Source: Eledone cirrhosa
Lineage: Eukaryota
Assembly: GCA_964016885.1 (NCBI GenBank)
Contig: OZ024756.1
Location: 9,486,001-9,550,000 of the forward strand
Direction: 5' to 3'
Length of the DNA: 64,000 nt
Shown here: positions 5,587 through 19,335 of the stretch, one piece after another
How the letters are laid out: every line of letters starts with the position of its first letter
Numbering within the stretch: position 1 is the stretch's first letter
Program-made: the position numbers and the translations under genes
Notes under the pieces: model-generated
The model's database searches: none
Told to the model about the DNA's origin: nothing
The model's input: only the letters and a program-made list of their open reading frames with translations

Positions 5587-5790
5587 AGAAAAACCACAGA
5601 CCCTACATCTCAAATCCACTTTTGAAAAGCAGAAGAACTGCGAAACCGGTAAAGGAACCAAATAAATATATATATTTTTTTAAATAAGACTCCAGTTGCA
5701 TTTTCGATTTCATCTTTTTTTCTTTATACTTTCACTCGTGTAGGACACCTCGGTTATTTTTCATTTTGTAAAAAAACCTCACATTCTAAT
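5587..5790 (+). mobile_element. ~200 bp HHR-bearing element (family H2) in (TA)n
   Basis: Homologous to 19127-19335. Contains TTGAAAA-GCAG-aagaa-CTGC-GAAA-CCGG-TA-aagg (5618-5655) then AATAAA. Confidence 0.75.
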
Positions 5791-5827
5791 ATATATATAT
5801 ATATATATATATATATATATATATATA

Positions 5828-6418
5828 CTAGCCGAATTACCCGCGCCTTGCTGCGTTTCACACATTTTTTTTGTAAGAAAATGATGATTGATTTTAAATC
5901 AGTGATATCATTTATGGAGAAAAACTCTGCATTTCAATATTACTCAATGTAAAATGTAATGCATGAAAAATTGGAAAACATTATTTTCTGTAATATATCA
6001 AATCATTTACGGGGTCGATAAAATAAAGTACCAGTAATACACTGGTTAATTGCTGGCCTTGTGCCTAACGTAGAAACAATTATTACATTATTAAATTTCA
6101 TTCTTATTTTGAATCTTGTAAATAATTTTTTCAAAATATCAATTCAAAACTTTTGTGAATAGGCATCATATCTTGTCATTTACCTATGGTTTAAATATTT
6201 CATATAAATCGAAGGGAAACAATTTTCAGCGGGGGTTTTCTGCAGGGGTTTGTGGCCCGGGGAACCGTTTGATTAAAATGAAATATACTTATCCAAGTAC
6301 CCTGGGCAATGTAGTTTCAGAATATATATGGTTATGGGGCGTCTATCTCCAAAACCTTAGGACTAGTTCGTGAACAAACAAACAAACAAACAGGAATACA
6401 ACTTTATACATATATAGA
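5828..6418 (-). mobile_element. Non-autonomous Helitron-like element
   Basis: Minus strand begins A|TCTATATATGTATAAAG followed by (GTTT)n, and ends with an imperfect GC hairpin (cgcagcaaggcgcgggt) then CTAG|T. AT target, no TSD. Confidence 0.7.
6007..6083 (+). mobile_element. SINE family A, 3' fragment, nested in the Helitron
   Basis: ttacggggtcgataaaataaagtaccag...gctggccttgtgcc..gtagaaacaattat matches other copies. Confidence 0.85.
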
Positions 6419-6424
6419 TATTGT

Positions 6425-6640
6425 TATACTTTGGGAGGGTCATGCTGCCAATAAAAACACACGGCCCTGTTGGTTCTACTTCAATTTATTATAAATTTTC
6501 GGTTGGTTGTTTCAATAACTGGATGGTTGTCACACATTTTGTGACCTCTTCAGTGACTGATTTGTTATTTTGTGTCTCTCACAACACACAAAAACAAGAT
6601 GATATAGGACATAACGAAGGAGAGACACAAAATAACAAAT
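6425..6640 (-). mobile_element. Short interspersed repeat, copy 2 of the 423-675 family, with an inverted terminal segment
   Basis: Homology to 423-640. 6585-6632 is the reverse complement of the segment seen at ~630-673. Confidence 0.55.
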
Positions 6641-6784
6641 CAATGTTTGTTTTTATAACAGGCTGAATGAGTTGGGGTACAAAACCCAATGAAACTGTTG
6701 TAACTAATTATATATATATATATACATATATATATATATATGTATATATATTGGAAAATGTCTGAGATCTTGGTACAATTAGGT

Positions 6785-6944
6785 ATATTTGAAAAAAGGA
6801 AAATAATGACTTCACTTGTGTTAAAAAATTTATGATTTAATGTTATAATATTATAATAGATCTACCAACTTTTAATATCATAACATTAAATCATAAACTT
6901 TTTAACGCTACAAGTGAAGTCATTCTTTTCCTTTTTTTCAAATA
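6785..6944. repeat. AT-rich foldback (~70 bp arms), MITE-like or inverted pLTR remnant
   Basis: atatttgaaaaaaggaaaataatgacttcacttgt...atttaatgttat pairs with ataacattaaat...acaagtgaagtcattcttttcctttttttcaaatat. Confidence 0.7.
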
Positions 6945-6997
6945 TATATATATATATATATATATATATATATATATATATATATATGTATGTATGT

Positions 6998-7601
6998 ATG
7001 TTATCTCTTTCTCTTAATTTCGAGTATATTTTTTTTGACCGGCCACCTTCCTGGTGGCAAGGTTGTAAAAGAAAAGAAATTGTCATCCTTTGAATCGCAA
7101 GAATGTTTTGCAAATTTTGAAGGTGCCAACTATCGCAGCTATTTGTAGACTATGAATTAGGGAGCTGCGCTTTTTGCCCGCAAATCCAAGTTCAGTCATA
7201 CTTTGGTCCAAGCGGGTTGGTATATAACCCGTAGCTCCAATAATGATGGGTATGAAGCTAAAGGTGTATCTTGGATACTGGATTTGTAAACTCCTCATCA
7301 ATGATCCGTAGATGTCCTCCTTCTCCTGCATTTTTCTGACAACGTTTACATCAAGTGGGCAGCTGATCTCCACAACAGAACACGTTTTCAATGTGTGGTC
7401 CCAAACAACAATATCAGGCCGGTTGTGCTTTAATTTGGTGGCAGTTTTTATTTTCAGGTTCCACCAGTATTCCTTAGTGCCATCTGTCTCAATATATTCT
7501 TCCTCGTTTGTTGTTAATTTTGTTTTCCGAAGTGCGTTCCAGATGGTTCTAGCTATCCCATCGTGTCTCATGGGGAGGTAGTAGCGAGATGACATTCTTT
7601 C
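6998..7601 (-). mobile_element. 5'-truncated RLE-type non-LTR retrotransposon (R4/Dong-like), endonuclease C-terminus plus 3' UTR
   Basis: After its repeat-derived N-terminus, ORF 7083-7721 reads YLPMRHDGIA...WWN..IKT..KHNRPDIVVWD...VVEISCPLD..EKEDIY...IPIIIGATG. These are the RHD and PD-(D/E)xK-type restriction-like endonuclease motifs. Confidence 0.85.
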
Positions 7602-16736: not shown

Positions 16737-16850
16737 CAATTTGGGATGGAAATAATTACCGTGACAGAGTGAAGCAGGCAGAGTGTCTGAGTATGGCGCT
16801 GTGGTTAGGGAGACAGGTTCACTGATTCTCAGAGTTATTATATTTACAGC

Positions 16851-17021
16851 CGGTAGAGTGTCGGACGCCATGCTTTCCAGCACAGTTACGTCCCTTTACG
16901 ATCTGAGTTCAAATCCCGCCGAGGTTGACTTTGTCTTTCATCCTTACGGGGGTCAATAAAATAAAGTACCAGTAATGCACTGGCGTAATTGCTGGCCTTG
17001 TGCCTAAAGTAGAAACAATTA
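16851..17021 (+). mobile_element. SINE family A, slightly 5'-truncated
   Basis: B-box and core present. TSD attatatttacagc at 16837-16850 and 17018-17031. Confidence 0.9.
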
Positions 17022-17494
17022 TATTTACAGCAGGGGTAGGTGGAAGAGGTCGGGGTAAGGGGACAGAAGGCCATATGTTTGATTGGAGGTAAAATGAGGA
17101 CGGAACAGAGAGAGAGGGAGATAGGAGAGAGAGTGAGGGAGAGGAAGGGAGAGAGAGAGAGAGAGAGAGAGAGAGGAAGGGAGAGAGAGCGAGAGAGAGA
17201 GGGAGAGAAAAGAAAGAAAAAAGAAAGAGAAAGGAAGCATCTGTCCAAAGATGTCATCGCGGTACAGTCTACCTATAGGCAGGATGTCGTGGCCAAAACA
17301 CTGCGACGCAATCCGTAGAAAAGATACATACATACACTGTCTGTGTGTGGGTAAGAGAAAGAGAGACACGGCAAGGGGTAGCAGAGAGAGAGAGAGAGAG
17401 AGAGAGAGAGAGAGAGAGAGAGAGAGAGAAAGGGTGTGAATGAGAGAGAGAGAGTGAATGCGAGAGGGTGATATTTACATTTACAACCCAAAAG

Positions 17495-18272
17495 ATAATG
17501 GTTTCTGATTTAGGCACAAGGCCAGCAATTTTCGATGAGGGGAAAGTTGATTAAGGCGACCTCAGTACATTACTGGTACTTTATTTTATCGACCCCGTAA
17601 GGATGAAAGGCAAAGTTAACCTCGGCGGGATTTGAACTCAGATCATACAGGGAGGTAACTCTATGCGTCAAAGCATGGCGTCCGCCCCTCTACCGATACT
17701 GCCAATCCCCTGCTTATAATAATTGTTTCTACTTTAGGCACAAGCCCAGCAATTACCCCAGTGCATTACTGGTACTTTATTCTATCGACCCCGCAAGGAT
17801 GAAAGGCAAAGTTAACCTCGGCGGGATTTGAACTCAGATCATACAGGGAGGTAACTCTACCCTGCTTATAATAATTGTTTCTACTTTAGGCACAAGGCCA
17901 GCAATTACCCAGTTCATTACTGGTACTTTATTTTATCGACCCCGTAAGGATGAAAGGCAAAGTCAACCTCGGCGGGATTTGAACTCAGATCGTAAAGGGA
18001 CGTAACTATGCTGGAAAGCATGGCGTCCGACCCTCCACCGATACTGCCAATCCACCCCTGCTTATAATAATGAGAGCGCGGTGGATTGGCCGTATCAGTA
18101 GAGGGTCGGACGCGATGCTTTGAAGCATAGAGTTACGGCCCTTTATGATCTGAGTTCAAATCCTGCCGAGGTTAACTTTGCCTTTCATCCTTACGGGGTC
18201 GATAAAATAAAGTACCAGTAATGCACTGGGATAATTGCTGGCCTTGTGCCAATAGTAGAAACAATTATAATA
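17495..18272. mobile_element. Cluster of four family A SINEs (three minus, one plus)
   Basis: Copies at ~17495-17708(-), 17717-17858(-), 17869-18056(-) and 18076-18270(+), with shared target duplications. Confidence 0.9.
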
Positions 18273-18360
18273 ATGAGATATACATAAATAGTTAGAATAT
18301 AAAACTGAATAGATTTGTAAATCTATTGCTCTTGCATCACAAGTATATATATATATATAT

Positions 18361-18698
18361 ATATACGATATTAACAAATGGAAACTATATTTATAAAACC
18401 ATATTTATTTCATTATACATATTTCAAGGATACCAAGTTAAATTATGGTATGCCTTCATCAGACAAAATACAATATATACCAGTTTTATAAATACTATCC
18501 TGATGTTTTATAGATACTATCCTGATGTCTTCCAAAACTAAGGGTCGCATTTTGAAAGGGTACGTCAATGTTAAAACTGGTATATATTGTATTTTGTCTG
18601 ATGAAGGCATACCATAATTTAACTTGCTTTCCTTGAAATATGTATAATGAAATAAATATGGTTTTATAAATATAGTTTCCATTTGTTAATATCGTATA
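18361..18698. mobile_element. Inverted pair (~127 bp arms) of an HHR-bearing element (family H6)
   Basis: 18361-18487 is the reverse complement of 18573-18698. The + arm has attttgt-CTGATGA-agg...cctt-GAAA-tatgta-TA-atgaaat (18591-18653). Confidence 0.7.
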
Positions 18699-18973
18699 TC
18701 TACTCCAAATACTTGTCGAGTGCTTTATATCAGTTATAAAATATTTACTTGTTGTATCCCAACAATTTAAATAGAACTTTTGCATATATATATATATATA
18801 TATATATATATATGTGTGTGTGAATGAAGTAATTCCGCCGGAAAGGTCCAGGAAAAAAGAGTGCTCTCTCTCTCTCTCTCTCTCTCTCTCTCTCTCTCTC
18901 TCTCTCTCTCTCTCTCTCTCTCTCTCTCTCTCTCCCCCCTCTCTCTCTCTCTCTCTCTCTCTCTATATATATA

Positions 18974-19335
18974 TATAAAGAAAAAAGGGATGAAATCGAA
19001 AATGCAACTGAAGTCTTATTTTTTTTAAAAATATATATATTTATTTGGTTCCTTTACCGGTTTCGCAGTTCTTCTGCTTTTCAAAAGGTGAGTTGAGATG
19101 GAGGGTCTGTGGTTTTTCTCACATGTGAGAAAAACCACAGACCCTCCATCTCAACTCACCTTTTGAAAAGCATAAGAACTGCGAAACCGGTAAAGGAACC
19201 AAATAAATATATATATTTTTAAAAAAAATAAGACTTCAGTTGCATTTTCGATTTCATCCCTTTTTCTTTATACTTCCACTCGTGTAGGACACCTCGGTTA
19301 TTTTTCATTTTGTAAAAAAAACCTCACTTTCTAAT
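18974..19335. mobile_element. Family H2 element with spacerless inverted duplication (~150 bp arms); HHR on each strand
   Basis: Palindrome centred on ttctcacatgtgagaa (~19123). HHR motifs at 19051-19088(-) and 19159-19196(+). Confidence 0.8.

Follow-up and report, generated by a model that had tools for sequence, protein, structure and literature searches.

The window analyzed here is a stretch of 64,000 nucleotides from Eledone cirrhosa (GenBank assembly GCA_964016885.1, contig OZ024756.1, positions 9,486,001 through 9,550,000 of the forward strand), a species with a 3.0-Gb genome rich in (TA)n. It carries six copies of a hammerhead ribozyme motif with the core UUGANAA, in which U3:A8 takes the place of the C3:G8 pair. 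The copies fall into three families (herein H2, H4, and H5), the first two of which are predicted to form the 3′ ends of Penelope-like elements (PLEs). In the active hammerhead fold, positions 3 and 8 pair as a tertiary contact. In all three families U3:A8 is the norm and not a product of decay.

Hammerhead motifs in the window

Judged from their sequence, all six UUGANAA cores are minimal type I hammerhead motifs with a palindromic helix III (Table 1). Downstream of each core (TTGAAAA in H2, TTGACAA in H4, TTGATAA in H5) come a helix II region, GAAA, the palindromic helix III, and a cleavage triplet (GUA or GUC), and the 3′ strand past the triplet pairs with the bases preceding the core to form helix I; the NUGANNA core, GAAA, a paired 3:8, and a UH cleavage site are present in every family. 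Helix I measures 9 bp in H4, 8 bp including wobbles in H5, and 3 to 4 bp in H2, and it closes the motif as in type I, where 4 to 5 bp are usual. The helix III palindromes (ACCGGT, ACGATCGT, and ACTGCAGT for H2, H4, and H5) have computed self-duplex energies of -8.3, -10.0, and -11.1 kcal/mol. Helix II opens with G10.1-C11.1 in 40/43 H2 and 35/35 H5 sequences; in H4 this position is C.A in 26/26, and in its sister family H4c (described below) it is paired in 3/32.

We searched with a descriptor of the minimal type I hammerhead in which helix I and the NUGANNA core are followed by helix II, GAAA, a palindromic helix III, UH, and the helix I′ strand, and in which positions 3 and 8 may be any base. 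In its strict form it returned nine matches in bases 1 through 25,200 (6 C3:G8 and 3 U3:A8), against a mean of 0.01 to 0.03 per shuffle (100 shuffles), and extension by homology raised the number of hammerhead copies in the window to 15 (9 C3:G8 and 6 U3:A8). The five UUGANAA cores that a sequence-only reading of the window had placed in these families are confirmed at their sites with hammerhead anatomy; a sixth, an H2 core at 21754 on the minus strand, was absent from its list and was recovered by homology. The strict descriptor overlooked the H2 core at 5622 because helix I there has only three contiguous pairs (the fourth is unpaired in 27/43 H2 sequences), and the H4 motif at 9104 satisfies it only once the helix II requirement is dropped. 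The families are sequence-unrelated, as that reading had held: the local alignment scores were reached by 93/200 (H2-H4), 30/200 (H2-H5), and 121/200 (H4-H5) shuffles. An Rfam scan of bases 1 through 26,500 showed no hammerhead family among the matches listed (150 of 170); its microRNA-like matches were dismissed as hairpins and microsatellites under the gathering score.

Table 1. Copies of the U3:A8 hammerhead families in the window and their parts
Feature	Positions	Strand	Description
H2 copy	5587..5825	+	Putative 5′-truncated 3′ end (pseudo-long terminal repeat, pseudo-LTR) of a Neptune-type PLE, flanked by (TA)n runs; 94% identity to the 3′ end of open reading frame (ORF)-linked locus L274; core 5622-5628, helix II 5629-5641, GAAA 5642-5645, predicted cleavage after A5651
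Short inverted piece of H4 element tail	8963..9088	-	Adjoins the H4 copy; usual PLE insertion form
H4 copy	9094..9301	+	Putative 3′ end of a Hydra-type PLE; 97.6% identity to ORF-linked L228; helix I 5′ strand 9095-9103, core 9104-9110, long helix II whose first pair is a C.A mismatch, GAAA 9218-9221, predicted cleavage after A9229
Two partial tandem H4 units	9336..9727	+	Period 210; ribozyme 3′ half only, without the UUGACAA half
H5 copy	12084..12826	+	Permuted unit of ~560 nt with a short interspersed nuclear element (SINE) piece inserted; helix I 5′ strand 12671-12678, core 12679-12685, helix II GCCG/CGGC, GAAA 12748-12751, predicted cleavage after C12759
Inverted H2 copy	18974..19127	-	Core 19084-19078; near-perfect hairpin with the adjacent sense copy
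H2 copy	19120..19451	+	Helix I CCTT 19159-19162 / AAGG 19193-19196, core 19163-19169, GAAA 19183-19186, predicted cleavage after A19192
Fourth, older H2 copy	21562..21765	-	Core TTGAAAA from 21754; broken helix III palindrome

The H5 copy has a second core-like word, CTGAGGG (12668-12675; CTGAGGA in some copies), 11 nt ahead of its U3:A8 core, which provides a weak alternative register and may be either a relic or chance.

U3:A8 across families and the genome

Genome-wide patterns with positions 3, 7, and 8 left free show how constant the pair is within each family. H2 has 12,112 exact matches, and U3:A8 is found in 99 of the first 100; for H4 (831 matches) the first 100 comprise 98 U3:A8, 1 U3.G8, and 1 U3.U8. 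By hand count, those 98 have A (71), C (25), or U (2) at the free position 7, which differs between subfamilies, with 3 and 8 constant. The H5 pattern gives 43 U3:A8 and 5 U3.G8, and the H5 3′ half has 125 genome matches. By hand count across the H2 matches, position 3 departs from U in 62 (C in 35, G in 15, A in 12), each of which retains A8 and none of which is C3:G8; position 8 departs from A in 46 (G in 22, C in 14, U in 10), against 47 departures at the free position 7. Change rates at positions 8 and 7 are equal (p = 1.0; A to G, 22 vs. 32, p = 0.22), and no mismatched H2 subfamily was found amplified among these matches. As A8 changes are as frequent as those of the free N7, the mismatches represent background decay of ~0.4 to 0.5% each; the inserted copies decay neutrally, and any selection therefore acted on source elements.

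To place these families in the genome, we sampled 120 evenly spaced 10-kb stretches (1.2 Mb), an extent at which rare families are under-sampled. The scored descriptor gave 83 matches vs. 0.25 in shuffles (74 C3:G8, 7 U3:A8, 2 U3.G8, 0 C3.A8). Because it undercounts H2 and H4, copies were extended by homology, yielding 150: 119 C3:G8, 24 U3:A8, 2 U3.G8, 2 C3.A8, 1 C3.C8, and 2 from U3:A8 families whose position 3 falls in an alignment gap. The U3:A8 families account for 26/150 copies, 20 of the 26 being H2, and a census based on CUGANGA would lose ~1 in 6 copies in this genome. The density of hammerheads is itself high, 150 per 1.2 Mb extrapolating to a few hundred thousand genome-wide.

From all sequence examined, 189 representatives fell into 34 clusters (23 C3:G8, 8 U3:A8, 2 U3.G8, 1 G3.G8), the three mismatched ones being single representatives; the 16 clusters with at least two representatives comprise 11 C3:G8, 5 U3:A8, and none mismatched. 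Fisher tests, uncorrected for relatedness, give p = 2e-4 for 0/16 mismatched multi-copy clusters and p = 2.5e-6 for 0/34 C3:A8 clusters. Further U3:A8 clusters (F9, F16, F21, F30) occur at L065:3097, L195:2925, L208, L231, L238:7813, L112:3181, and L279; no parent ORFs were linked to them, and F9 and F30 resemble distant H5 relatives by eye.

The H5 copies with U3.G8 may represent a subfamily. Their number alone is unremarkable, because A-to-G changes at other A columns of the older H5 family run from 0 to 6 of 55, and the H5 tree did not resolve them as a group. A subfamily marker is present in 4/5 scored G8 sequences, which represent three insertions, vs. 3/33 A8 sequences; four of the G8 loci had been chosen for carrying G8. 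The marker suggests that a U3.G8 source element existed in H5. A C3:G8 match within the H5 cluster was discarded as a false register in L002; two C3:A8 rows among 59 H5 sequences were traced to a misaligned relative and a junction.

Parent elements and a C3:G8 sister family

The H2 motif lies downstream of a PLE coding region. A same-strand GIY-YIG endonuclease ends 1.0 to 1.8 kb upstream in 22/30 loci (Pfam GIY-YIG, E 6e-5), and tracing the upstream sequence gave reverse transcriptase (RT) matches in 15/30. Translations from L274 and L295 contain a CX4CxxC linker, a long spacer, a C-terminal GIY-YIG domain, and a Neptune-like RT motif. Compared by eye with the rows of Figs. S1 and S2 of Craig et al. 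2021 (PMC8557442), these features point to H2 as the predicted 3′ end of a Neptune-type PLE. The adjacent Hydra-type ORFs in L098 and L062 were rejected as its parent: they are chance neighbors, and H2's own upstream sequence leads to the Neptune-type ORF.

For H4 the endonuclease ends 1.1 to 1.3 kb upstream, with the ORF link at five distinct places among 33 copies. Translations from L228 show DKT, RWR replacing RWK, a CxCX5C linker, CxxC, CxH around conserved E and N, and a C-terminal endonuclease; by the motif marks in section 11 of PMC8557442, the H4 parent is a putative Hydra-type PLE. A Pfam search of the Hydra-type fragments returned nothing apart from a weak GIY-YIG match in the parent of H1, a C3:G8 family of the window. 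All other Hydra-type families linked to hammerheads carry C3:G8, so that H4 probably acquired U3:A8 secondarily and apart from H2.

The H4 3′ half has 6,500 genome matches, and most of those sampled belong to a sister family, H4c, with the core CUGAAGA. The two motifs are homologous (0/200 shuffles reach the score), their endonucleases are 61 to 63% identical, and their core states are sharply divided: 25/26 H4 sequences are U3:A8 and 32/32 H4c sequences are C3:G8. Nine positions of helix I are paired in most copies, with swaps from C-G to U-A and from G-C to A-U between the families, and several pairs of the distal helix II stem are altered on both sides. Helix II has a common register in both, with C.A at pair 1 (window 9111 and 9217) and C.C at pair 4. 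We therefore rejected a decayed H4 helix II, as both mismatches and the compensated distal stem recur in the C3:G8 sister. The changes keep both helices in both families and support selection on source elements. A few H4c copies have U-A in place of the helix II C.A. The H4/H4c lineage was seen in L191-L220 and L230-L233; with C.A and C.C, and not G10.1-C11.1, it is missed by standard descriptors.

Among the H5 loci examined there are three head-to-tail pairs, at 563, 566, and 762 nt, most copies being single or inverted; the pairs point to a non-autonomous unit. Another U3:A8 family, H6, is located 747 nt past the RT-endonuclease ORF of a third PLE lineage at one locus (L239:6610-8790) and is also present in L147, L165, and L101; its helix III palindrome is long (ACAGAGCTCTGT), and its parent has a short CX4CxxC linker and is Nematis-like by eye. 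The endonuclease tree has long branches, and 7/10 of its forks are open, so it separates lineages and cannot order events; its row L071 "x_C3G8" bears a wrong label, since the endonuclease there is of H4 type and truncated and the motif that follows it is unrelated. Inverted and partial-tandem copies beside (TA)n are a described form of PLE insertion, and the copies in the window are alike.

Of the C3:G8 families in the window, the canonical H1, whose helix III palindrome is ATGCGCAT, has copies at 915(-), 3528, 20912(-), 21015, 21318(-), and 21469. At 3528 the copy follows a Hydra-type GIY-YIG fragment (ORF piece 1898-2248) at a distance of 1.28 kb, in a long inverted arrangement. Other C3:G8 families occur at 8682, 18462(-), 18598, 23195, and 23660; those at 8682 and 23195 were recognized by eye and do not satisfy the strict descriptor. 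A SINE-like repeat has many copies (8454-8659, 16851-17025, 17495-18272, 23743-23932), and a piece of it at ~12337-12432 splits the H5 unit; this frequent repeat appears similar to octopus SINEs. Positions 25206 through 64000 form a 39-kb strand-skewed low-complexity array with periods of 8, 20, and 52.

Interpretation and comparison with known systems

We consider it probable that these are minimal type I hammerheads at the 3′ ends of PLEs whose source elements carry U3:A8 in place of C3:G8, and that they cut element RNA slowly, as dimers. Direct support comes from the motifs themselves, the family-wide U3:A8, the RT-endonuclease link of H2 (Neptune-type) and H4 (Hydra-type), and the neutral decay of inserted copies. 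By analogy with Cervera and De la Pena 2014 (PMC4209133), two motifs in a tandem transcript would pair via the palindromic helix III and would cleave after GUA or GUC, processing the transposition RNA. Positions 3 and 8 would be kept paired by selection on transposing source elements, and the U3:A8 switch may have arisen at least twice, probably via a tolerated U3.G8 wobble step. The window copies, all truncated, inverted, or partial, are probably inert by-products; at 18974-19451 the inverted H2 copy would pair with the sense motif and mask it.

The sequence-only reading had attributed U3:A8 to selection for catalysis and not to decay. Its second half stands on the family counts (99/100, 98/100, 43/48), the lack of mismatched multi-copy clusters, and the compensation between H4 and H4c; the first half can apply at most to source elements, given the neutral inserted copies (A8 46 vs. 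N7 47), and selection for catalysis itself would follow from structural considerations.

Several observations weigh against slow catalysis by U3:A8 source elements. The helices of H2, the largest family, are weak (most copies have a 3-bp helix I), its monomer is computed to fold at only -3.2 kcal/mol, or into a different fold for the 5622 copy; H4 and H4c lack the G10.1-C11.1 pair; ~10% of H5 copies (5/48 matches) are U3.G8; 31 H5 copies gave no upstream PLE match and no ORF; and the cluster test, which ignores relatedness, includes three families that were deliberately targeted among its five multi-copy U3:A8 clusters. The activity reported for metazoan minimal motifs is low, and the authors leave non-cleavage roles open (PMC4209133). 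A hammerhead-like fold might accordingly be kept for RNA dimerization or binding of the element RT, with negligible cleavage; the weak H2 helices, the C.A mismatch of H4/H4c, the low activity in vitro, and the success of Naiad PLEs without canonical hammerheads all favor such a role. We nevertheless regard it as unlikely: positions 3 and 8 make a tertiary contact in the active fold (Perreault et al. 2011, PMC3088659), and their pairing is retained from family to family, as are UGA, GAAA, and the UH triplet, none of it obviously needed for structure alone.

A single origin of U3:A8, with later passage to other PLE families through swapped 3′ ends or inheritance from an ancient U3:A8 ancestor, is quite improbable. 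By eye, H5, F9, and F30 resemble members of a single superfamily, the endonuclease tree with its long branches and open forks would accommodate it, and no Neptune-type family with C3:G8 was linked as a sister to H2; however, the H4 motif is homologous to that of C3:G8 H4c and not to H2 or H5, and H4 sits among Hydra-type families that are all C3:G8. A founder accident, in which a few source elements drifted to AT-rich cores and amplified with the 3:8 pair unselected, is very unlikely: it would fit the AT-rich genome, the AT-ward direction of both transitions, C3U and G8A, the dominance of H2 among sampled U3:A8 copies, the neutral decay of insertions, and the U3.G8 group of H5, but independent drift would yield single-change families, and the multi-copy clusters include no mismatched one and the 34 clusters no C3:A8.

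Returning to U3:A8 source elements under selection, we tentatively propose, as a possibility, that at least two and perhaps three PLE clades within a single genome each switched from C3:G8 to U3:A8 on their own, with H4c and H4 as a sister pair, the H5 subfamily as a transposing U3.G8 wobble intermediate, and H4/H4c (~6,500 copies) as an active variant with a conserved C.A for G10.1-C11.1. Together these families offer a natural test set for how a tertiary pair inside a ribozyme core is exchanged: H4 and H4c represent one ribozyme in its U3:A8 and C3:G8 forms, and within H5 a probable U3.G8 subfamily stands beside the U3:A8 one. A 2017 paper in RNA Biology reportedly treats small hammerhead variants of PLEs and may already cover similar motifs.

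U3-A8 cores are established in PLEs. In Schistosoma PLE minimal motifs they make up ~1,300 matches vs. ~2,000 to the standard minimal descriptor, found with a dedicated U3-A8 descriptor built in 2014; that genome also holds thousands of canonical motifs, so that the denominators differ from the 26/150 found here (PMC4209133). The suggestion of the sequence-only reading that U3:A8 may be unusually common in this lineage is not supported, nor is its view of the variant as rare or overlooked: 26/150 in 1.2 Mb lies below the Schistosoma ratio, and a descriptor for the variant was already in print. Like the minimal hammerheads of the Schistosoma mansoni Cercyon elements, those described here are type I, with a short helix I, a palindromic helix III, a pseudo-LTR location, dispersed truncated and inverted copies, and abundant U3-A8 covariation. 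One Schistosoma minimal motif had no activity as a monomer and low activity as a dimer. The present case differs in the tie of U3:A8 to a Neptune-type, a Hydra-type, and a third lineage in one genome, and in the C3:G8 sister of H4. The helix II of H4/H4c, ~100 nt, opens with C.A and not with G10.1-C11.1, which PMC4209133 describes as highly conserved. Natural U3/A8 covariants show the same swap and are stated to be active in vitro in PMC3088659, citing Przybilski and Hammann 2007; they are a few rare cases there, whereas here the swap defines families with thousands of copies.

Within the open literature, subscription papers lying outside our coverage, we found nothing joining hammerhead ribozyme, octopus, and Penelope beyond PMC8557442. 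By the figures and section of that paper cited above, the H4 parent shares DKT, an RWK-like RWR, CxCX5C, CxxC, CxH, and (TA)n flanks with Hydra-clade PLEs, and the H2 parent shares the CX4CxxC linker and long spacer with Neptune PLEs (Fig. S2); the Hydra elements described there have canonical hammerheads, whereas H4 is Hydra-type with a U3:A8 core. H5 partly resembles the non-LTR retrozymes of animals (Cervera and de la Pena 2020, PMC7229834; Li et al., bioRxiv 10.64898/2026.07.22.740005) in being non-coding, with some head-to-tail pairs and a type I hammerhead, features that a non-autonomous PLE derivative would be predicted to have, but differs in a unit of 563-566 nt vs. 170-400 nt, in its mostly single or inverted copies, and in its minimal U3:A8 motif. 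With U3-A8 cores of PLE hammerheads in print since 2014, the feature is a well-documented further example with little that is new in kind; mildly new are the likely independent switch in at least two PLE clades of one genome, the probable U3.G8 subfamily, and the conserved C.A mismatch that opens helix II.

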